A stretch of 51,850 nucleotides of DNA from Candidatus Iainarchaeum sp. (GTDB lineage Archaea > Iainarchaeota > Iainarchaeia > Iainarchaeales > JAAZKV01), in NCBI GenBank assembly GCA_012799645.1, contig JAAZKV010000001.1, positions 1-51,850 of the forward strand. Reading direction: 5' to 3'. The notes below the pieces were generated by a model. The model searched no databases. It had not been told where the DNA came from and worked only from the letters and a program-made list of their open reading frames with translations. Both the position numbers and the translations under genes were made by a program. Within the stretch, counting starts at the first letter, position 1. Every line of letters starts with the position of its first letter. Positions 6,681 through 49,573 of this stretch are shown piece after piece.

Positions 6681-8144
6681 ATGGGTTGGGAATTAATAGA
6701 ATCTTATTTTAAAAACAAAAACATAGCACAAATGGAAATTGATTCTTATAATCAATTCATTAGTACAAGGTTGAACGAAATTGTTAAAGAAAATAATCTA
6801 ATTGTTCCAAAAATTGAAGAGGTAAGAATTGAGTTAAGCGATATTGAGGTTGAGAAACCAAAAATAATTGAAGCTGATGGAAGTCCAAGAGATATTTTCA
6901 CTCCAATGGAAGCACGACTTAGAAACAGAAATTACGCAGGGCCAATCTATTTAACTATGAGACTTTTTAGAAGAGATGTTGAACAGGATGCGAGAAGAAC
7001 AAATATTGGAGATATGCCTGTAATGACAAAATCAAAACTATGTTGGCTTGAAGGAAAAAACGAACAAGAACTAATTGAAATGGGAGAGGATCCAAAAGAT
7101 TTTGGAGGATACTTCATAATTAACGGAAGCGAAAAAGCACTAATGACACAAGAAGTACTATCATCCGACAGAGTACTAATTTCGGAAGGAGAAAAAGGAG
7201 TTGTTGCCGAAGTAATTTCAACAAGAGGAGCTTTCAAAGGAAGAGTAAGAGTGTTAAGAACACCAGAAGGAATGATTTACGTATCATTCCCAACCAGTCC
7301 AAAAAGATTGAGTTTGTTCGGATTGTTCAAAGCACTAGGACTTAAAACAAAAAAAGAAGTTTTTGAAGCATTCAATGATGAAAAAGAAATACAAAATGAT
7401 CTACTACTAAACTGGGAAGAATGCGATGTTAGTAATGAACAAGAAGCACTTGACAAAATCGGAAAATATGTTGCACCAGGACAAGTAATTGATTATAGAT
7501 TGAGAAGAGCAAGAGAAGTAATTGACGGATTTTTATTACCACACATTGGACAAGATGAACCAGCAAGATTAGCAAAAGCATACTACTTAGCAATGATGGC
7601 AACAAAAGCAATTGAAAGACACTACAAATTAAGAGGAAAAGATGACAAAGATAATTATGTTAACAAAAGACTTGAACTAAGTGGAAAACTAATGGAACAC
7701 TTATTCAGATACTCGTTCAAGTACTTTGTAAAAGATTTAAGATTCCAAATTGACAGAACTGTTACCAGAAGAAGAAAACTAAACATATCAACTGTTGTTA
7801 GACCTGGAGCAGTGAGTGAAAGAATCAGGTTTGCTATGAGTACAGGAAACTGGATAGGGAGAAGCACAGGAGTAGCAAAATTCATGGACAGAGTGAATTA
7901 TTTAGCACCACTAACTGATTTACGAAAAGTAAAATCACAATTAGCAAAAACAAGAGAATTGTACGAAGCTCGGGATGTTCACGGAACACACTGGGGAAGA
8001 CTTGACCCAATAGAAACACCTGATGGACCACAATGTGGATTAGTAAAAAACTTGTGTTTCATGGCAGAAGTAACAACTGATGCATCAGAAACACCAGTAG
8101 AAGAATTATTACACAAACAAGGAGTAAGATTGAAAAAATTATAA
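6681..8144 (+). CDS. rpoB2: RNA polymerase subunit B'' (N-terminal half of split Rpo2)
   Basis: Translation MGWELIESYFKNKNIAQMEIDSYNQFI...GRLDPIETPDGPQCGLVKNL is recognisably RpoB''. GGGTGA Shine-Dalgarno upstream of ATG 6681. Confidence 0.95.
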   Translation: MGWELIESYFKNKNIAQMEIDSYNQFISTRLNEIVKENNLIVPKIEEVRIELSDIEVEKPKIIEADGSPRDIFTPMEARLRNRNYAGPIYLTMRLFRRDVEQDARRTNIGDMPVMTKSKLCWLEGKNEQELIEMGEDPKDFGGYFIINGSEKALMTQEVLSSDRVLISEGEKGVVAEVISTRGAFKGRVRVLRTPEGMIYVSFPTSPKRLSLFGLFKALGLKTKKEVFEAFNDEKEIQNDLLLNWEECDVSNEQEALDKIGKYVAPGQVIDYRLRRAREVIDGFLLPHIGQDEPARLAKAYYLAMMATKAIERHYKLRGKDDKDNYVNKRLELSGKLMEHLFRYSFKYFVKDLRFQIDRTVTRRRKLNISTVVRPGAVSERIRFAMSTGNWIGRSTGVAKFMDRVNYLAPLTDLRKVKSQLAKTRELYEARDVHGTHWGRLDPIETPDGPQCGLVKNLCFMAEVTTDASETPVEELLHKQGVRLKKL

Positions 8145-8280
8145 ATCGCACTACTAAGCGAAGCGCATGTAGTGCTTCGTCTGGTCCAAGCAAAATTTTA
8201 TTTTGCGGGACCCGTAAAAGCTAAGTGCTTTTACTTGGTCATGGCGAAACAGGACAGAGTAAGATTGAAAAAATTATAAA
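8122..8280 (+). repeat. 24-nt perfect direct repeat (8122-8145 and 8257-8280, the last 24 nt of rpoB'' including its TAA) bracketing a 111-nt GC-richer three-hairpin insert
   Basis: Base-by-base comparison: GAGTAAGATTGAAAAAATTATAAA occurs twice. Hairpins at 8148-8175, 8183-8212 and 8214-8234. Confidence 0.9.
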
Positions 8281-10168: not shown

Positions 10169-10306
10169 AATAAAAAAATTTGAAAAAAAAAGAAAAATGT
10201 GAAAATAAAAATTTTTGAAAAAATGGAGGAACAATGACTTGAAAAGCTTTATTGAGCGAGTGAAAAACAAGCGAAAATAATGCTCACACGTTAAGGGTGA
10301 TTGGTT

Positions 10307-12925
10307 ATGATAATGAAAAAAATTGGAAGTGTTGAGTTCAGTATTTTAGGACCTGAAATGATTAGAAAAATGAGTGCGATAGAAATCAAAACACCCGAAA
10401 CTTATGACAAAGATGGATACCCAATGGAAGGAGGGCTAATGGATGCTCACCTAGGAGTAATCAATCCAGGAATAAGATGCAAAACTTGCGGACAAGGAAT
10501 GAGAAATTGCCCAGGACACTTCGGACACATTGAACTAGAAAGACCTGTTGTTCACTCAGAGTTTGGAAGAAAACTAGAACTACTAATGAACACTACATGT
10601 AAAGATTGCGGAAACATACTATTACCAGAAGAACAAATAAAAAAATTACAAGAAGAAGCAAAAGGAAAAGTGGTTGATAAAACAAAAAAAATAATGATAA
10701 AAACAAAAACCGTAAAAAAATGCCCACACTGTTCAGCACCAGCACACAAAACAACACTTGACAAACCAACAAACTTCTTCTACAACAAAGAAAGAATTTA
10801 CCCAACACAAATAAGAGAATGGGTAGAAAAAATACCAGAAGAACACCTAAGAATACTAGGATATGACACTACAAGAATCAAACCAGAATGGTTCATAATG
10901 ACCTCACTACAAGTACCACCAATCACTATAAGACCGAGCATAACACTTGATAATGGAATAAAATCAGAAGATGATTTAACACACAAACTAGTTGATATTA
11001 TTAGAATTAATCAAAGATTAAAAGACAACATAGAAGCAGGAGCACCACAACTAATAATAGAAGATCTATGGGACCTGCTACAATACCACGTAACAACCTA
11101 CTTTGATAACAACACCGCAGGAGTGCCACCAGCAAAACACAGAAGTGGAAGACCACTAAGAACAATAATACAAAGATTGAAAGGAAAAAAAGGAAGATTC
11201 AGATACAACCTAACAGGAAAAAGAGTAAACCACGCAGCAAGAACAATAATCGTGCCAGACCCATACATTGATTTATCAGAACTAGGAATACCAGAAGAAG
11301 CAGCAAAAGAACTAACAGTACCAGAGTTCGTAACAGAATGGAATCTAGAAACAGTAAAAAAAATTGTGGAAAAAAGCGACAGACCAGTATACATTATAAG
11401 ACCAAACGGAACAAGAAGAAAAGTAACAGAAGAAAACAAAGAAGAAATCGTAAAAGAAATTGATATTGGATACAGAATAGAAAGAAACCTAAAAGACGGA
11501 GATATTGTTTTATTCAACAGACAACCATCACTACACAGAATGAGTATGATGGCACACACCGCAAGAATTATGCCAGGAAAAGTATTCAGAATGAACCCAA
11601 TAGTGTGTCCCCCATACAACGCTGACTTTGATGGAGATGAAATGAACTGCCACGTACCACAAACAGAAGAAGGAAAAGCAGAAGCAAAAAAACTAATGCT
11701 AGCAAGAGACCAAATCATATCACCAAGATTCGGAGCACCAGTAATCGCACCAAAAGAAGACGGAGTGAGCGGAGCATTCGCACTAACAATGCCACAAACA
11801 GAATTCACAAAAGAAACAGCAATGCAACTAATGTACGAAATAGGAGTAACAGAATTACCAAAACCTGACAGAGGAAAAAAATACTCAGGAAAATTAATAT
11901 TCTCACAAATACTACCAAAAGACCTAAACCTAGAATACGAATCATACACAAGCAAAATATTCAAACAAGCAGGAATGAAACCAGAAGACGGAAAAATAAT
12001 AGAACAATACATGAACAAAGTAAAAATCGTGAACGGAAACATAGAAAGCGGAGTAATTGATTCCGCATCATTAAGTGAAGGAAAAGGAGTACTAGTTGAT
12101 ACAATAGCAAGAGAATACGACAGCATAGTACTTGAACAATTCTACCACGATCTAAACAGATTAACAGGATACATTTTAACAGAAAAAGGAATGACAGCAT
12201 CACTAGCAGAATATGATGTGAGCAACAACATCGAAACACTAAAAAACAAAGTAATAAACGAAACCATGAAAAAAGCAGAAGAACTAGTAGAATCATACAA
12301 AAAAGGAACAATGGAAATCATACCAGGAAGAACAATACAAGAATCATTCGAACAATACATGATGAGAATTTCAGCAGAAGCAAAAGACAAAGTAGAAAAA
12401 GCAATAATGCAAGAAAAACTACAATACGTAACAGGAGAAGAAGCAGTGCTAAACACAATCGCCATGATACTATCAAAATCAAGAGGAAGCACTACAAACC
12501 TAATGAACATAGCAGGGTTCTGGGGACAAGCATCAGTAAGAGAAGGAAGACCAAAAAAAGGATTCAAGAAAAGACTAATCACATCAAACGAAAGAGCAGA
12601 TGAAGGACTACTAGCAGGAGGATTCATAACCAACAACTTCTTGGACGGAATGACAGCAAAACAATACTTCTACCACTCAATGGGAGGAAGACAAGGAGAA
12701 GTAGACACAGGAGTATCAACAAAAGTATCAGGATACTTATACAGAAGACTAGCAAACTCACTAAAAGACATAGTATCAGCTCCTGACGGAACAGTAAGAA
12801 CAGCATCAAACTCACTAATACAATACCAATACGGAGAAGACGGAGTGTTCCCAAAAAACACTAACAAAGGAAAAAGCGTGGATGTATTAGAAGAATACAA
12901 AAAAATGAAAGCGAAAAAAAATTAA
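10307..12925 (+). CDS. rpoA1: RNA polymerase subunit A' (Rpo1N)
   Basis: CKTCGQGMRNCPGHFGHIEL, RFNRQPSLHRMSMMAH-type block (FNRQPSLHRMSMMAHTARIM) and the catalytic NADFDGDEMN motif. GGGTGA at 10295-10300. Confidence 0.95.
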   Translation: MIMKKIGSVEFSILGPEMIRKMSAIEIKTPETYDKDGYPMEGGLMDAHLGVINPGIRCKTCGQGMRNCPGHFGHIELERPVVHSEFGRKLELLMNTTCKDCGNILLPEEQIKKLQEEAKGKVVDKTKKIMIKTKTVKKCPHCSAPAHKTTLDKPTNFFYNKERIYPTQIREWVEKIPEEHLRILGYDTTRIKPEWFIMTSLQVPPITIRPSITLDNGIKSEDDLTHKLVDIIRINQRLKDNIEAGAPQLIIEDLWDLLQYHVTTYFDNNTAGVPPAKHRSGRPLRTIIQRLKGKKGRFRYNLTGKRVNHAARTIIVPDPYIDLSELGIPEEAAKELTVPEFVTEWNLETVKKIVEKSDRPVYIIRPNGTRRKVTEENKEEIVKEIDIGYRIERNLKDGDIVLFNRQPSLHRMSMMAHTARIMPGKVFRMNPIVCPPYNADFDGDEMNCHVPQTEEGKAEAKKLMLARDQIISPRFGAPVIAPKEDGVSGAFALTMPQTEFTKETAMQLMYEIGVTELPKPDRGKKYSGKLIFSQILPKDLNLEYESYTSKIFKQAGMKPEDGKIIEQYMNKVKIVNGNIESGVIDSASLSEGKGVLVDTIAREYDSIVLEQFYHDLNRLTGYILTEKGMTASLAEYDVSNNIETLKNKVINETMKKAEELVESYKKGTMEIIPGRTIQESFEQYMMRISAEAKDKVEKAIMQEKLQYVTGEEAVLNTIAMILSKSRGSTTNLMNIAGFWGQASVREGRPKKGFKKRLITSNERADEGLLAGGFITNNFLDGMTAKQYFYHSMGGRQGEVDTGVSTKVSGYLYRRLANSLKDIVSAPDGTVRTASNSLIQYQYGEDGVFPKNTNKGKSVDVLEEYKKMKAKKN

Positions 12926-15046: not shown

Positions 15047-15442
15047 ATGAAACTCACTATGAAAGAAATATTGTTAATGAATGCATTAACTAATGTGAGC
15101 AAAGTCTCACCAAAGGATTGCATTATTGAAAACAACATAGTTACTTTCCTTGTGAACTCCAACGAAGTTGGAAAAGCAATAGGAAAAAAAGCAACAAATG
15201 TTAAAGAACTTGAAACCAAGTTAAAAAAAAGAATAGAAATAATTGGTTATTATGAAAAACCAGAAATGGTGATAGAGAAAACATTTGATGCGACAAGCAC
15301 CTCCGTGAAAGAAAAAAAAGAAAAAATAATAATCACAATGGATGGAACAAATAAAAGAAAAGTTTTAGGAAATTTTTCAAGGTTTAAGAGAGTGAAAGAA
15401 TTAATTAAAAGAAATTACGGAGTGGAAATAATTTTAGTATAA
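15047..15442 (+). CDS. nusA: archaeal NusA-like KH-domain transcription factor
   Basis: About 130 aa; KH-type block NEVGKAIGKKATNVKELE; conserved position between L30e and S12. Confidence 0.85.
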   Translation: MKLTMKEILLMNALTNVSKVSPKDCIIENNIVTFLVNSNEVGKAIGKKATNVKELETKLKKRIEIIGYYEKPEMVIEKTFDATSTSVKEKKEKIIITMDGTNKRKVLGNFSRFKRVKELIKRNYGVEIILV

Positions 15443-15624
15443 AAACACAATGAGTAATAATATGAGTGAGGATTGTGAGCAGGGATTATGTTTAGTGAGT
15501 ATGAGCAGTAATTAGGTTTAGTGAGTATATTTAGTGATTATGAGCAGGGATATGAGTAATAGTGGTTATGGGTAGTGAGTATGTTTAGTAATTTAGAAAT
15601 TTGATTTTTAGAGATGTGATTTGA
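15443..15624 (+). repeat. C-poor degenerate array of TTTAGTGAGTAT-type motifs in the nusA-rps12 spacer
   Basis: TTTAGTGAGTAT at 15491 and 15517, TTTAGTGATTAT at 15530, GGTAGTGAGTAT at 15571, TTTAGTAATTTA at 15584, interleaved with TGAGCAGGGAT/TGAGCAGTAAT. Confidence 0.8.
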
Positions 15625-16056: not shown

Positions 16057-16077
16057 AAAAAATAGGTGTGTGAATTG

Positions 16078-16872
16078 ATGGATAAAAAAATTGATGACAA
16101 TAAAAAAATAGAAGACAAAAAAGAAACAAAAATTGTTGCAGAAAAACCAAAAGGAGAAAAAAAAGTTTTCTCACAAAAAAAACACGAACCAAAAGAACAA
16201 GTTCCACAAGAACACAAAAGCGAAGCTAAAGAAAAACCTATTTTTGTTAAAAAGAAAAACTTGTTCCCTGAATACAAAATGTTCAACAAGTGGGACACAA
16301 GTGAAGTGGTAGTAAAAGATCTAAGTTTAGTTAGATACATTAATCTTGACACAATCATTATTCCACACACTTTTGGAAGAAAAGGACAAGGAAGATTTGC
16401 TAAAGCAAACGTAAACATTGTTGAAAGATTAATCAACAAAATAATGAGATCAGGGCAAGGAAAAAGAAAACTAAGTGGAAAATATGTTAGAGGGAGAGGA
16501 AGTTGTGGAAAAAAAATGCAAGCAATACAAATAGTAGAAAGAGCATTTGAAATTGTTGAAAAGAAAACAAAAAAGAACCCAATCCAAGTACTAGTTGATG
16601 CGGTAGAAAATGCTGCACCAAGAGAAGATATTACAAGAATCAAAAGAGGAGGAGTTGCATACTCACTCGCTGTTGATGTTTCACCAATCAAAAGACTTGA
16701 TGAAGCACTAAAAAACATTGCACTCGCAGGTTTTGGTAATTCTTTTAACAAAAAAGTAAGCGCTGAAGAAGCACTTGCGGAAGAAATAATTGCTGCTGCT
16801 GCAGGAGACATGAAGAGCTCTGCACTAAAAAGAAAAGAAGAAGTAGAAAGAGTAGCAAGGGCAAGTAGATAG
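16078..16872 (+). CDS. rps7: 30S ribosomal protein S7 (uS7) with about 65 aa of K/E-rich N-terminal extension
   Basis: NIVERLINKIMRSGQGKRKLSGK...VDAVENAAPREDITRIKRGGVAYSLAVDVSP. AGGTG Shine-Dalgarno, then ATG 16078. Confidence 0.92.
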   Translation: MDKKIDDNKKIEDKKETKIVAEKPKGEKKVFSQKKHEPKEQVPQEHKSEAKEKPIFVKKKNLFPEYKMFNKWDTSEVVVKDLSLVRYINLDTIIIPHTFGRKGQGRFAKANVNIVERLINKIMRSGQGKRKLSGKYVRGRGSCGKKMQAIQIVERAFEIVEKKTKKNPIQVLVDAVENAAPREDITRIKRGGVAYSLAVDVSPIKRLDEALKNIALAGFGNSFNKKVSAEEALAEEIIAAAAGDMKSSALKRKEEVERVARASR

Positions 16873-17017
16873 ATGCCTTAATTCTATCAAGCCAAAGGCA
16901 AAAATAGCGCACTCTAAAACAAACAAATGAAATGAGAGTGTAATAAGCCCTACCTCGCGTTAGCGAGTGTAGTGCGCGTGTGAACGGAGCAAGCCGTTCA
17001 GCAAGGGCAAGTAGATA
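16854..17017 (+). repeat. 18-nt perfect direct repeat (16854-16871 and 17000-17017, the 3' end of rps7) bracketing a 128-nt GC-richer hairpin-rich insert
   Basis: AGCAAGGGCAAGTAGATA occurs twice. The first copy is completed to stop TAG, the second to TAA. Hairpins CTCGC-GTTA-GCGAG (16954-16967) and TGAACGG-AGCAAG-CCGTTCA (16981-17000). Confidence 0.9.
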
Positions 17018-17087
17018 AATAATTTATTTGCGATTTAGTTTTCGTGCTTTTTTTTTAAAAGCACAAATTTATTTTTAAGGTGGTTAG

Positions 17088-19280
17088 ATGGGAAGAAGAG
17101 AAGAAATGGCAAAAGTAGTTGAAGATTTAATGATTAATAGGGATGATATTAGAAATATTGGAACAGTTGCACACATTGACCACGGAAAAACAACACTATC
17201 TGATTCTTTAGTTGCTGCGGCAGGATTAATAAATTATGATTTGGCCGGAGAAGCACAAGTAATGGATTATGAAGATCAAGAACAAGAAAGAGGAATAACC
17301 ATTAACTCGGCTAACATTTCAATGATGTTTGAATGGAAACAAAAAAAACACATCGTTAATTTAATTGACACTCCAGGACACGTTGATTTTACTGGAGAAG
17401 TAATAAGAGCAATGAGAGCGGTTGATGGAGTAATATTACTAGTTGATTCTGTTGAAGGAGTAATGCCACAAACAGAAACAGTTATTAGACAAGCACTAAA
17501 AGAATACGTAAAACCTGTTTTGTTCATAAACAAAGTTGATAGAATTATTAAAGAACTAAACGCTAGCGAACAACAAATGCAAGAAAAATTCATAAAAGTA
17601 ATATCACAAGTAAATAATCTAATTGAAAGAAACGCACCTGAACAATTCAAAAAAGAATGGCAAGTTAGTATCCAAAAAGGAACTGTTGGTTTTGGTTCAG
17701 CTAAAAGAAAATGGGGAATTAGTGCAGCGCATATGCAAAAAACAGGAATTAATTTTAAACAAGTATACCAATACTTGAAAGAAGATAAACAAGATGAGTT
17801 AGCAAAAATTTCTCCAGTACACGAAGTTGTTTTACAAATGGTTGTAGAACACTTACCTTCACCTGTGGAAGCACAAAAATACAGAATACAAAAAATTTGG
17901 GGCGGAGATATGGAGAGTGACATTGCTAAACAAATGGCGGCATGTAACCCTGATGCACCACTATCAATGGTTATCACTGATGTATCGGTTGATCCACACG
18001 CAGGAGATGTTGCAACAGGAAGAATTTACTCCGGAGCAATTCACCCAGGAGATATAGTAAAAATTTTGTCAGCTGATAAAGAACTAAAAGTACAAAAAGT
18101 TGGACTTTACTTTGGAAACGATCTTGTTCCAATAAACAAATCAGTTGCTGGAAACATTATTTCTCTTGTTGGATTAAAAGATATTTATTCAGGAGAAACA
18201 ATTTCTACAACAGAAATGAAATCTTTTGAAAACTTTATGAGTAATGCAGAACCAGTTATGACAATATCTATTGAAGCAAAAGACCCAAAAGATTTACCAA
18301 AACTAATTGAAGCTTTAAGAAAACTACAAAAAGAAGATCCTAACCTAAAAGCAACAATAAACCAAGAAACAGGAGAACACTTACTTAGTGGAATGGGAGA
18401 ACTTCACTTAGAAGTAAACATTTACAGAATAATAAACAACCACAAAATACAAGTACAAACATCACAACCAATTGTTGTTTATCACGAAGCAATAACAGGG
18501 GATAGTGAAACACTTGAAGCAAAATCACCAAACAGACACAACAAATTCAAAATGAAAGCACGACCAGTGCCTCAAGAAATTTATGACAAAATAATTGAAA
18601 CAAGATTGGATGGAAAAATCAAACCAAAACACGCAGAAAGTGTTGAAAAACTAAAAGCTGTTGGGTTTGACACTGATACTGCTAGAAAAGTATGGGCAGT
18701 AATTAATGGGTGTGTTCTAATAGATAAAACAAGAGGAATACAAGCATTACACGAAATCAGAGAACTTGTAGTACAAGGATTCAGTGATGCTGTAAACGAA
18801 GGACCACTAGCTAAAGAAAGATGCCAAGGAGTAATGATAGAACTAGAAGATGCAACACTACACGAAGATGCAATCCACAGAGGACCAGCACAAGTACTAC
18901 CAGCAATTACAAGAGGAATATACGCTTGCATGCTACAAGCAGGAACACAATTATACGAACCAAAACAAATACTATCAATCACAGTACCGGAAGATATGAT
19001 GGGAGCAGCATCAAGAGAACTAGGAACAAGAAGAGTACAAATAACAGAAATGAAAACAGAAGGAGACTCAAGTATAGTTATAGGAAAAGCTCCAGTAAAA
19101 GAACTAATCGGATTCAGTTCAGCAATGAGAGGAGCAACACAAGGAAAAGCACAATGGACAGCAGAATACTACGGATACGAACTCCTACCAAGAGAACTAC
19201 AATCAACAACAATAAAAGAAATAAGAAAAAGAAAAGGAATGCCTGACGAAATGAAATCATGGCAATTCTTTTTAGAATAA
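17088..19280 (+). CDS. fusA: translation elongation factor aEF-2
   Basis: GTPase motifs AHIDHGKTTLSD, DTPGHVDF, NKVDR; diphthamide-loop region HEDAIHRGPAQ. AGGTGG Shine-Dalgarno upstream. Confidence 0.97.
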   Translation: MGRREEMAKVVEDLMINRDDIRNIGTVAHIDHGKTTLSDSLVAAAGLINYDLAGEAQVMDYEDQEQERGITINSANISMMFEWKQKKHIVNLIDTPGHVDFTGEVIRAMRAVDGVILLVDSVEGVMPQTETVIRQALKEYVKPVLFINKVDRIIKELNASEQQMQEKFIKVISQVNNLIERNAPEQFKKEWQVSIQKGTVGFGSAKRKWGISAAHMQKTGINFKQVYQYLKEDKQDELAKISPVHEVVLQMVVEHLPSPVEAQKYRIQKIWGGDMESDIAKQMAACNPDAPLSMVITDVSVDPHAGDVATGRIYSGAIHPGDIVKILSADKELKVQKVGLYFGNDLVPINKSVAGNIISLVGLKDIYSGETISTTEMKSFENFMSNAEPVMTISIEAKDPKDLPKLIEALRKLQKEDPNLKATINQETGEHLLSGMGELHLEVNIYRIINNHKIQVQTSQPIVVYHEAITGDSETLEAKSPNRHNKFKMKARPVPQEIYDKIIETRLDGKIKPKHAESVEKLKAVGFDTDTARKVWAVINGCVLIDKTRGIQALHEIRELVVQGFSDAVNEGPLAKERCQGVMIELEDATLHEDAIHRGPAQVLPAITRGIYACMLQAGTQLYEPKQILSITVPEDMMGAASRELGTRRVQITEMKTEGDSSIVIGKAPVKELIGFSSAMRGATQGKAQWTAEYYGYELLPRELQSTTIKEIRKRKGMPDEMKSWQFFLE

Positions 19281-19417: not shown

Positions 19418-20548
19418 ATGATACCGAATAATTTGAAGGATCTTGTTACTTTTGTTCCAAACAAAAATGAGTCAATACACAATTGGTTTTATTACAAAGA
19501 AGGTTATTCAAAAGAACTCATAGAGTGGCTTGTTAAAGAATACAAACTCACTGGACCAATTTATGATCCCTTTGCAGGAGTTGGAACAACTCTGCTTGTT
19601 GCAAAAAATTTGGGGATTAGTGCGATAGGAACTGATGTGAGTCCGCTAACATCATTCATTTGCAGTGTGAAAACAAGAAATTATGACACTAGTATTTTGA
19701 AAGAAGAGCTTGAAAAACTTGCTAAACTAAAACCAACAATGGTTGGAAAATATCCAAACAAAAAAATCAGAGAATTATTCAGAGCAAAAAACTTGGATGA
19801 TATATACTACTACCATCAAAAAATATTTGAAATCAAAGATGAAAAAACAAAAAACTTTTTTATGCTCGCATTAATTGACACCACTGGAAGAGTAGCGAAT
19901 GTAATCAAAACCGGTGGAAGTTTAAAAAAAATAAAAAAACACCACATGGATGTAAAAAAACTTTTATTAGGAAAAATAAAAAGAATGATACTTGATATTG
20001 AAAGAACAGAAAACAAAAAAAAACAAATCTCGCAAAATATTGGACAACCTTTGGAGTCAATTGAACCAATTATTTACAACGAAGATGCGCGAACTTTTAG
20101 ATTGGAAGAAAATTCTATTGGGTGTGTTATCACTTCCCCCCCATATTTGAATAAAATTGAGTACACTTCTGTTTACAAAATGGAGCTTGGATTATTTTTT
20201 GATGAACAAGAAACTAGACTTCGTTCTTATGTTGGAGATGTTCCTAGTGTAGAGGGTGAAGAATATGCAGGGTTACCAAATATCGCTATTGCATATTTTC
20301 AGGATATGAAAAAAGTTTTGGAAAATATTTATTTTTGTTTAAAACCAAAAGGAAAAGCTTTCATTATTGTCGCAGGAGGGTGTTTGCCTGATAGAACAGT
20401 GAATTCCGAAACAATAATTGCTGAAGATGCTAAAAAAATAGGATTCACCCTAATTGACATAATTACTGCGAGAGAAATTGCTTGCGTAACAAACCGAACC
20501 CAACACATCGGAAAAGTAAAAGAAGCGATAATCATACTAGAAAAATAA
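19418..20548 (+). CDS. SAM-dependent DNA methyltransferase (N4-C or N6-A type), orphan
   Basis: DPFAGVGTT (SAM-binding motif I) near aa 50 and VITSPPY (motif IV, (S/D/N)PPY) about 190 aa later. No adjacent endonuclease ORF. The 3' end is followed by a duplicated copy of itself (see findings). Confidence 0.65.
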   Translation: MIPNNLKDLVTFVPNKNESIHNWFYYKEGYSKELIEWLVKEYKLTGPIYDPFAGVGTTLLVAKNLGISAIGTDVSPLTSFICSVKTRNYDTSILKEELEKLAKLKPTMVGKYPNKKIRELFRAKNLDDIYYYHQKIFEIKDEKTKNFFMLALIDTTGRVANVIKTGGSLKKIKKHHMDVKKLLLGKIKRMILDIERTENKKKQISQNIGQPLESIEPIIYNEDARTFRLEENSIGCVITSPPYLNKIEYTSVYKMELGLFFDEQETRLRSYVGDVPSVEGEEYAGLPNIAIAYFQDMKKVLENIYFCLKPKGKAFIIVAGGCLPDRTVNSETIIAEDAKKIGFTLIDIITAREIACVTNRTQHIGKVKEAIIILEK

Positions 20549-20648
20549 TTGCCACTACGTGTGATTGAAAACCACACAATGAGTCATTCACGCCGGCTCT
20601 GAAGGCCGATCGAGGAGAGTAAAAGAAGCAATAATCCTACTAGAAAAA
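20515..20648 (+). repeat. 31-nt direct repeat with 2 mismatches (20515-20545 and 20618-20648, the 3' end of the methyltransferase) bracketing a 72-nt insert that begins with the stop codon in use
   Basis: AGTAAAAGAAGCGATAATCATACTAGAAAAA versus AGTAAAAGAAGCAATAATCCTACTAGAAAAA. The insert starts TAATTGCCACTACG. Confidence 0.9.
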
Positions 20649-49201: not shown

Positions 49202-49352
49202 AAAAAATAAAAATTAATGTTTATATTTAATTAATTTGTAATTAATTAATATTATATTGAAGTGACTGAAAGTCACAAAAAAAGCAAAGGAAAAAAGCCG
49301 GCAAAAAATGACAAAGCCAGCAAAAAAAAACAAAAGCTGGTTAAGCAACTTT

Positions 49353-49517
49353 GCAGGGGTTCCCGAGCGGTCAAAGGGGCAGGACTTAAGATGTCAAACA
49401 AAAGGCAAAAAAGCTCTATCAAAGCCAAAAGCAAGATAGTGTGCACTTGTCCAAAGGGAAAAACAGATGTGATCCTGTGGCTTAGTGCCTTCGACGGTTC
49501 AAATCCGTCCCCCTGCA
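49353..49517 (+). tRNA. tRNA-Leu(UAA), class II (long variable arm), interrupted by an 81-nt intron at the 37/38 position
   Basis: Hand fold. Acceptor GCAGGGG/CCCCTGC. D arm CCC..GGG with loop GAGCGGTCAAA. Anticodon stem CAGGA (49380-84)/TCCTG (49473-77), loop CTTAAG+A. Variable arm TGGCTTAGTGCCTTC. T arm GACGG-TTCAAAT-CCGTC. Discriminator A; no encoded CCA. Confidence 0.9.
49391..49471 (+). other. tRNA-Leu intron (81 nt; boundary could shift by 1 nt because A flanks both junctions)
   Basis: This is the sequence between anticodon-loop G37 (49390) and A38/TCCTG. It is A-rich and does not fit any tRNA arm. I could not confirm a bulge-helix-bulge by eye. Confidence 0.75.
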
Positions 49518-49573
49518 TTGAGTTTGAAAAACAGTGGTATAAAAAAATTAAGTTTATGTTGAGTTGATAAAGT

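Follow-up and report, generated by a model that had tools for sequence, protein, structure and literature searches.

The 128 bases that follow the gene of ribosomal protein S7 (rps7) in Candidatus Iainarchaeum sp., at positions 16872-16999 of a 51,850-nucleotide stretch of contig JAAZKV010000001.1 (the whole of which is here called the window), are a genuine, recent insertion with target duplication: this segment, plus one copy of an 18-nt repeat, was inserted into the rps7 stop codon. The 3' module of the insert is the same unit that stands flush with tRNA 5' ends, including that of the tRNA-Ala in the genome's own rRNA spacer. We are highly confident of the following points taken jointly: the insertion itself, the dispersed family to which it belongs, the identity of the unit with tRNA leaders, the recurrence of duplications of 13-79 nt and the co-transcription of the insert. 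The host is a DPANN archaeon, whose genome comprises 779 kb in 34 contigs, with 30% GC.

The insert lies in the S12-S7-EF2 operon (gene order S12, rps7, aEF2). The locus is made up as follows:

16066-16872, plus strand: rps7, ribosomal protein S7 (from the list of open reading frames (ORFs); Pfam PF00177, E=5.6e-37)
16854-16871, plus strand: repeat copy 1, AGCAAGGGCAAGTAGATA, native to rps7, of which it forms the last 18 nt; the related genome G001 has one orthologous copy only, AGCAAAAGCAAGTAGATAA
16870-16872, plus strand: rps7 stop codon TAG, with TA from repeat copy 1 and G as the first base of the insert
16872-16944, plus strand: variable 5' part of the insert, with a decayed K-type hairpin A, CTATCAAGCCAAAGGCAAAAATAG, plus a CACTCT...AGAGTG hairpin (from the fold)
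16945-16999, plus strand: two-hairpin module, made of hairpin A (CTAC-CTCGC-GTTA-GCGAG-T-GTAG), the linker TGCGCGTGT and hairpin B (GAACGG-AGCAAG-CCGTTC)
17000-17017, plus strand: repeat copy 2, the duplicated target, followed by the original TAA and the rps7-aEF2 spacer, which is collinear with that of the relatives G001 and G006
17018-17087, plus strand: original rps7-aEF2 spacer, with the hairpin GTGCTTTTTTTTTAAAAGCAC and a GGTGG ribosome-binding site, kept in the empty-site genome
17088-19280, plus strand: aEF2 (Pfam GTP_EFTU and EFG domains)

The original prediction, made from the letters of the window alone, described an 18-nt duplication around a structured insert of 128 nt, and this was borne out by the sequence and by repeat scans: AGCAAGGGCAAGTAGATA is found at both 16854-16871 and 17000-17017, an exact 18-mer direct repeat that was recovered by a whole-genome scan with a spacing of 146 nt. 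About 0.006 exact 18-nt direct repeats within 600 nt are expected by chance per 51.8-kb window of the same composition (a per-base match probability of about 0.29, raised to the 18th power and multiplied by about 3x10^7 position pairs). The insert's GC content is 0.45, against 0.30 for the genome. The left junction falls within the rps7 stop codon and termination is kept, as had been claimed: copy 1 reads AGA TA/G and copy 2 reads AGA TAA. Both hairpins that had been described, CTCGC-GTTA-GCGAG and TGAACGG-AGCAAG-CCGTTCA, are present. The inverted pair GCGCACT/AGTGCGC exists as well, one base to the right of where it had been placed, at 16908-16914 and 16971-16977, and it is unused in the minimum-energy fold.

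The region of the insert folds better than shuffled sequences on both strands (z = -3.6 and -3.5), and the foot of hairpin B is flush with repeat copy 2. The termini of the insert, GATGCCTTAA at the start and AGCCGTTC at the end, are mutually non-complementary, the hairpins being internal. The ORF list contains no ORF within the 128 nt.

Misassembly of the locus, which had been raised as a possible source of the pattern, was excluded, since contig X14 (3958 nt), from an unrelated 2025 wastewater metagenome, covers positions 16500-17387 with 0 differences. A 901-nt stretch of the locus is held complete by more than 12 independent metagenomes (digesters, sludge, wastewater) and by two metatranscriptomes; every word sampled from it is present in several data sets besides that of X14. 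The remaining assemblies (X1, for example) break only at 16945-16987, a segment that is repeated in the rRNA spacer. Metatranscriptome contigs extend from rps7 to 16987 and from 16958 into aEF2 with the insert retained, and no splice joints were reported in them over the rps7-insert-aEF2 region. The insert is apparently co-transcribed with rps7, on evidence that consists of contigs rather than reads and in which DNA carry-over is possible.

The S7-EF2 junction was compared across 21 genomes of the same genus: the closest relatives, G001 and G006, and 19 more. The junction of G001 reads ...GAAAGAGT AGCAAAAGCAAGTAGATAA ATAATTTATTTGCG..., that is, a single repeat copy followed by a spacer identical to the one that follows copy 2 in the window. 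No duplication of the rps7 end was found in the 19 further genomes. The segment is therefore not an ancestral spacer, which was the other explanation that the original prediction had left to be checked; in none of the 21 relatives is the sequence present at this site unaccompanied by the duplication.

Genome G006 carries an insert of 64 nt, GATGACTTCAGCTCTATCGAGCCGAAGGCGAAGATAGTGCGCGTGTGAACGGAGCAAGCCGTTC, at the same rps7 site. This insert is bracketed by two copies of its own allele, AGCAAAAGCAAGTAGAT, and its left junction lies 1 nt earlier (T/GA stop). At each of the two sites both repeat copies carry the coding allele of the host, GGG (Arg AGG) in the window and AAA (Lys AAA) in G006. The inserts of the window and of G006 are 78% identical over the first 36 nt and 100% identical over the last 30 nt, with 65 additional nt between these parts in the window. 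The sequence CTATCAAGCCAAAGGCAAAAATAG is homologous to CTATCGAGCCGAAGGCGAAGATAG of the G006 insert, and in the window copy four G-to-A changes destroy the hairpin. This type of hairpin A is also present in the G006 tRNA-Met leader.

For the window, G001 and G006, which are 12-16% apart in the neighbouring genes, site support for the order of branching is divided 14:9:7, with one open fork. The rps7 site was either hit independently in the lineages of the window and G006, or it holds an old, homogenised insertion that was lost from G001 through repeat recombination.

The 3' module is a 55-nt unit composed of hairpin A, the linker UGCGCGUGU and hairpin B, which has the loop AGCAAR (AGCAAG in the rps7 insert). 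In an alignment of seven copies 94% of the cells were paired, compared with at most 46% in slid controls, and 8 of the 15 pairs showed a compensatory change (e.g. GAACGG/CCGTTC versus CGACGG/CCGTCG). The window and G006 share the last 28 nt of the module, GTGCGCGTGTGAACGGAGCAAGCCGTTC, without any difference, and so does G051, a member of another genus; this perfect 3' end contrasts with the divergence of the neighbouring genes among the window, G001 and G006. A covariance model, R1, was built from the seven-copy alignment, and its best match is the rps7 module (79.6 bits, E=4e-18). No Rfam family matched within the window at its gathering score, and permissive searches of two of the inserts returned only chance-level hits (E>3).

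The original prediction had proposed a search for further copies. Within the insert, nucleotides 58-116 have a counterpart in the 16S-23S spacer (internal transcribed spacer 1, ITS1) of the genome itself, with 90% identity over 59 nt and 97.7% over 43 nt, and this copy lies directly upstream of tRNA-Ala. The 3' module forms a family across the relatives: matches to R1 were found in 25 of the 38 genomes of the taxonomic family, in 4 of its 5 genera. A single genome holds as many as 12 copies, and the host genome holds 11.

Among the copies with surroundings examined, at least 20 are located no more than 2 nt from a tRNA 5' end, in the orientation of the tRNA, and the leaders that bear them belong to at least 10 tRNA identities (Gln, Met, Glu, Ala, Ser, Thr, Val, Cys, Asn, Ile). 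The module is flush with the first tRNA base, for example, at tRNA-Gln and tRNA-Glu(UUC) in G001 and at tRNA-Glu(CUC) in G006. The tRNA-Gln and tRNA-Met leaders are shared across genera and are therefore old; of the module in front of tRNA-Gln, the host genome retains a decayed relic as the leader. That the 3' half of the insert is a tRNA 5'-leader module had not been recognised in the original prediction.

The module also occurs in antisense. Such copies were found in tRNA introns (tRNA-Trp of the host, tRNA-Gln of G021 and tRNA-Gly of G006), with the hairpin-B side at the 5' splice site or no more than 2 nt from it, and against tRNA 3' ends (tRNA-Leu(UAG) in the host, tRNA-Trp in the host and in G006).

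Around these tRNA and rRNA genes several further arrangements were seen. Upstream of tRNA-Met in the host genome (C3:189-342) there are three tandem 49-nt copies of hairpin A plus linker, and to the last of these is added a hairpin B that makes it complete and stands flush with the tRNA. The intron of tRNA-Trp at C21:3686-3937 is an antisense module, and intron-like sequence together with a decayed piece resembling the 3' exon occurs again downstream, an arrangement that looks like a partial duplication of intron and 3' exon. The rRNA spacers on contig C32 (L002 1154-2128) are long for a 0.8-Mb genome (474 nt for ITS1 and 428 nt for ITS2) and hold several modules, with R1 matches at C32:11265, 11634 and 11812. 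Introns of 19-81 nt are present in 11 of the 34 predicted tRNAs of the host genome; at 49352-49518 of the window a tRNA-Leu(UAA) with an 81-nt intron was found by the intron mode of ARAGORN and missed by the standard tRNA scan.

A second type of module, consisting of the hairpin GAGCCTTTAAGAAAGKCTC, GCGAAA and an AT-rich tail, is located upstream of tRNA-Gln and tRNA-Tyr, at L078 (G021:C75) 1378-1473 and at C3:15742-15843 of the host genome. Repeats of 13 and 21 nt are present there, which duplicate the first 13 nt of the tRNA, and the side that faces the tRNA is the AT-rich one, not the hairpin.

Insertions flanked by duplications recur. About 29 hairpin inserts of this kind, comprising the rps7-type module and related types, were recorded: 14 in the host genome and about 15 read in relatives. 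The rps7 insert had been called the second of the same architecture, and three with duplications are indeed present in the window (at 8122, 16854 and 20515). The other copies in the host genome are:

8122-8280, plus strand: sister insert of 111 nt, with a 24-nt duplication of the end of the preceding ORF (repeat scan and sequence)
20515-20648, plus strand: sister insert of 72 nt, with a 31-nt duplication containing 2 mismatches (repeat scan)
10244-10307, plus strand: degenerate two-hairpin module (R1 E=7.8e-4) in the spacer just before the ribosome-binding site and start of the next ORF, with no duplication left
Elsewhere in the genome: inserts at C3:23872, C3:15742, C12:6561, C15:34859, C19:2757, C21:3686, C25:2864, C26 (two, in tandem), C27:17508 and the tRNA-Pro end C27:1-116

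The copy at 10244-10307 is outside the set of three inserts described previously. At the contig ends C9:1-127 and C27:1-127 the tRNA-Pro 3' end and a hairpin insert are repeated in tandem with a period of 79 nt, and these tandem copies are probably the cause of the assembly break there. Within the window, upstream of S12 (15400-15620), there is also a run of imperfect 26-nt repeats (GATTGTGAGCAGGGATTATGTTTAGT and variants); in G001, G006 and G005 the alignment places the apparent end of a protein-coding gene at this position.

Across the family the duplications are 13-79 nt long, and the repeated sequence differs at each insertion site. The duplicated targets are the ends of protein genes, where the repeat often extends into the stop codon or slightly beyond it; the final 14-27 nt of a tRNA, in some cases together with its trailer; the first 13-21 nt of a tRNA; and the 3' ends of C/D box sRNAs (G001, G012). 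Junctions in stop codons were seen at rps7 in the window, in G006, at C25 and at L064. The tRNA-Met gene of G048 carries an insert on each side: the 5' insert duplicates the first 21 nt of the tRNA and the 3' insert the last 21 nt, ending at the discriminator base.

The inserts are polar. The foot of the last hairpin meets the downstream repeat to the nucleotide in every flanked copy read. The 5' side, by contrast, is ragged: between 0 and about 70 additional nt stand before hairpin A, and these are often AT-rich or made of other modules. The 5' side may also be chimeric: nucleotides 28-111 of the 8122 insert are 98.8% identical (84 nt) to C8:5749-5832, a sequence that abuts the 3' end of tRNA-Leu(TAG) on the opposite strand, yet the first (5') hairpin differs between this insert, which starts at 8146, and the tRNA-Leu flank. 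The orientation of the module is nearly always that of the gene with the duplicated end, the exceptions being C12, C15 and C21. Tandem inserts occur in C26 and in G012. The duplications at L075, C26 copy B and 20515 consist of an identical core followed by a strongly diverged tail.

The whole statement that we favour, namely insertion of a dispersed module through polar, RNA-templated copying of processed tRNA-leader RNA in the manner of the short interspersed nuclear elements (SINEs), is one to which we give about even confidence, its mechanism being what we infer from the pattern described above. The module would be transcribed as part of a pre-tRNA leader and freed by a cut at the RNase P site, which would give it an exact 3' end. 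The leader RNA would then be copied from this 3' end by a polymerase that has reverse-transcriptase activity, primed by, or switching from, a 3' end at the target; copying would proceed to a variable 5' end and would jump from there to the end of the RNA or DNA of the host gene. The terminal stretch of the target would thereby be copied twice, and the product could enter the chromosome via annealing or repair. Such a process is expected to generate a long duplication that varies in length, a 3' boundary that is exact beside a ragged, often chimeric 5' part, an orientation following the host transcript and, occasionally, tandem arrays.

The exact 3' end of the module coincides with the RNase P site of the leader copies; taken together with the ragged or chimeric 5' ends, the variable duplications, the orientation tied to transcription and the boundaries of the duplications at RNA termini, this is the pattern expected if an RNA were copied in a polar way from its 3' end, with template switching from end to end. 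The presence of a reverse transcriptase in the host genome was also counted in favour of RNA-templated copying.

Several observations weigh against it. The only reverse transcriptase found in the host genome is of the diversity-generating retroelement (DGR) type, beside an Avd-like gene and an AAC-rich template repeat. The reverse-transcriptase family PF00078 was detected in only 8 of 35 genomes and is absent from G049, G047 and G053; G049 is nearly complete, yet it has perfect duplications of 23 and 26 nt. An A-rich 3' tail is lacking in the module copies. In the seven-copy alignment the module helices contain no G-U pairs, and the helices are therefore silent on which strand is active and on whether RNA or DNA is the active form. 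The RNA data are unstranded metatranscriptome contigs, which hold neither strand nor end information. That junctions gather at gene ends could be due in part to selection, the genome being very compact, and the duplications with an identical core and a diverged tail resemble the outcome of recombination with a foreign allele more than that of simple copying.

Alternatively, the module could be transposed at the DNA level by a host, plasmid or viral enzyme that recognises its 3' end (linker and hairpin B) as DNA and makes staggered nicks 13-79 nt apart, perhaps at transcription bubbles or start sites (cf. Ty3 at tRNA genes), with gap filling generating the duplication. A 28-nt 3' end kept perfect across genera would be in agreement with a cis-acting recognition site, the lack of G-U pairs and the equally good folding of both strands are compatible with DNA hairpins, modules flush with tRNA +1 could mean start-site targeting, and reverse transcriptase is missing from most genomes with recent insertions. 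However, the duplications left by enzymes with staggered cuts have one fixed length, whereas those seen here are spread over 13-79 nt, terminal inverted repeats are lacking, and neither the ragged or chimeric 5' ends nor the orientation tied to transcription would be expected. Nor was a candidate enzyme found: the Y1 transposase (PF01797) occurs in 6 of the 38 genomes, the host not among them, TnpB is absent from the genus, and the distributions of the two do not track the modules. We regard movement as DNA as unlikely without being far-fetched. Spread by recombination seems to us improbable. It would involve a circular or tandem intermediate, made of the module and the repeat, that integrates at the chromosomal copy of the repeat by homologous or site-specific recombination, is lost again through recombination between the repeats and moves between related strains at the same site. 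This would suit an rps7 site that is occupied in the window and in G006 and empty in G001, the tandem arrays of alternating repeat and insert in C26 and G012, and the identical cores with diverged tails (L075, C26 copy B), which resemble attachment (att) sites bringing in a replacement gene end. It leaves unexplained how the repeat of a new site is acquired, there being about 29 different repeat sequences; a donor from another lineage would leave a hybrid, whereas both copies carry the host-specific allele (GGG, AAA); and no integrase is present inside the 128 nt.

The occurrence of related modules inside tRNA introns (Trp here, Gln in G021, Gly in G006) and in rRNA spacers might suggest an archaeal intron-like element that the tRNA splicing endonuclease would cut out of the rps7-EF2 transcript at a bulge-helix-bulge, which would leave the DNA insertion without effect in the RNA. 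The intronic modules are in antisense, however, the predicted fold has no bulge-helix-bulge at the junctions, and the metatranscriptome contigs keep the insert, with no joint; splicing would also be unnecessary, since the stop codon is preserved. We consider this explanation very improbable. That the repeat is an assembly artefact, or a chance repeat in an ancestral spacer, can practically be dismissed: short-read assemblers do break at the ITS-like segment 16945-16987 (X1), but the independent contig has 0 differences, about 0.006 such 18-mers are expected by chance, the architecture is repeated about 29 times and the site is empty in a relative.

Other interpretations of the rps7 insert were considered and rejected. 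A reading of the GAAAC and UGA motifs as a self-cleaving ribozyme or a C/D box, considered by eye, found no supporting model. A guide RNA, with the module as scaffold and repeat copy 2 as guide, or with the module pairing with the duplicated copy, was rejected for the rps7 locus, where the complementarity between repeat copy 1 and the insert is only 5 bp; in G006 there is none. The hairpin-B loop AGCAAG equals the first 6 nt of the repeat here, but the same loop is found where the repeat starts differently, so that matching of the target by the loop does not hold as a rule. A motif AGYAAR at the start of the repeat was seen in several copies and is not claimed, given the small sample and a purine-rich genome. 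An involvement of the DGR was also discarded: the template-repeat region on C11 has no similarity to the module, and the G-to-A decay of the 5' hairpin is not the adenine-directed signature of such elements.

The DGR itself is located at C11:525-2337 (L020) of the host genome, on a contig of 2.5 kb. It comprises a reverse transcriptase of 432 aa and an Avd-like four-helix protein of 115 aa, with the AAC-rich template repeat between them.

In its operon the rps7 insert appears to be a tolerated passenger, and it may act as an intercistronic RNA structure. As a wider and rather doubtful proposal, DPANN archaea might hold protein-less, RNA-templated elements whose intermediate is the tRNA 5' leader freed by RNase P, with copying from the exact 3' end of the leader, end-to-end switching onto host RNAs (the ends of mRNAs at stop codons, the termini of tRNAs and sRNAs, and 5' exons) and cDNA annealed into the chromosome without a dedicated endonuclease. 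If this were true, a single process would lie behind the long duplications, the structured tRNA leaders, the modules of the rRNA spacers and new tRNA introns, the antisense modules at 5' splice sites being read as the seeding of such introns.

Three results are new. The 3' half of the insert is a conserved tRNA-leader module, family-wide and supported by covariation. A second species also carries an insert at the rps7 site, which in a third species is empty. The polarity and the boundary pattern point to an RNA-templated process, with no resident enzyme found that accounts for the pattern. If the working proposed here is true, the module would be an archaeal, non-coding, retroposon-like element whose master copies are functional parts of tRNA genes. 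It would account for features of reduced DPANN genomes such as odd duplications of gene ends, tRNA leaders that are long and structured, and rRNA spacers of excessive size, and it would offer a testable route for the rise and movement of archaeal tRNA introns, a long-standing question. The organism is abundant across many anaerobic-digester data sets, metatranscriptomes included, so that the idea is testable with existing samples.

We could not match the spread of a protein-less module with a target duplication of 13-79 bases to any described prokaryotic mobile element, and literature searches on tRNA-leader or mobile elements of DPANN or Iainarchaeota returned no description of such modules. 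The closest parallels combine some of its features.

In its working the module comes closest to the SINEs of eukaryotes. These and other eukaryotic retroposons that depend on long interspersed nuclear elements (LINEs), which are inserted by target-primed reverse transcription, are likewise short, non-coding, derived from small-RNA gene regions and dispersed in many copies. They share with the module an exact 3' end, a variable and sometimes chimeric 5' end, target duplications that vary in length and an orthologous site that is empty. The module differs in residing in a prokaryote, in having the tRNA leader rather than the tRNA body as its source, and in having no A-rich tail. Its duplications reach 79 nt, and one boundary tends to fall at a host RNA end. 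No partner with a LINE-type reverse transcriptase and endonuclease was found for it, the reverse transcriptase being of DGR type only and present in a minority of genomes. A reverse transcriptase wherever insertions are recent, as for SINEs, is not what was observed, PF00078 being absent from G049 despite its perfect duplications.

Small GC-rich hairpin repeats just after genes, co-transcribed and in compact genomes, are also known as repetitive extragenic palindromes (REPs) and bacterial interspersed mosaic elements (BIMEs), Rickettsia palindromic elements (RPEs), Correia elements, enterobacterial repetitive intergenic consensus (ERIC) sequences and MITEs (miniature inverted-repeat transposable elements). 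REPs make no target duplication, whereas the module insert has one of 18 nt and an empty site in G001; they also depend on the REP-associated tyrosine transposase (RAYT, Y1), and PF01797 is absent in the host genome (G000), G001, G006, G049, G047 and G053. MITEs are marked by terminal inverted repeats and by duplications that are short and constant in length, and the rps7 module has neither. A transposase-encoding parent was sought without success among Y1_Tnp, absent from the host genome, and TnpB, absent from the genus, DDE families not having been searched. Unlike the duplications left by integrases at att sites, the 128-nt insert has neither integrase nor ORF, a different repeat at each site and no fixed att core. 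The archaeal bulge-helix-bulge intron differs in that the rps7 insert has no such motif in its fold and is retained in metatranscriptome contigs.

Insertion with long target duplication has been described in bacteria (Nobusato et al. 2000; Furuta, Abe and Kobayashi 2010, PMC2853133) for kilobase-sized restriction-modification units with repeats of more than 30 bp (about 46-420 bp). There, too, the repeats are long and variable and often lie over the 3' end of a gene, no mobility gene is present and the mechanism is unknown; a long, variable target duplication made without a transposase is thus likewise unexplained in bacteria. The cargo of the module is different, being a structured non-coding sequence of 50-130 nt that belongs to a multi-copy family in archaea.

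Transposition of tRNA introns and disruption of tRNA genes have been reported in archaea (Fujishima et al. 2010, as reviewed in PMC4090602; Sugahara et al. 2012, PMC3293823), including a 1.9-kb insertion with a recombinase gene in Caldiarchaeum that was attributed to an integrase (PMC4090602; PMC3293823). Such cases resemble ours in the related short sequences common to tRNA introns and flanks and in the partial tRNA copies that form direct repeats next to tRNA genes. Intron transposition was reported there neither at the ends of protein genes nor with duplications, whereas the module described here is also inserted after protein genes.

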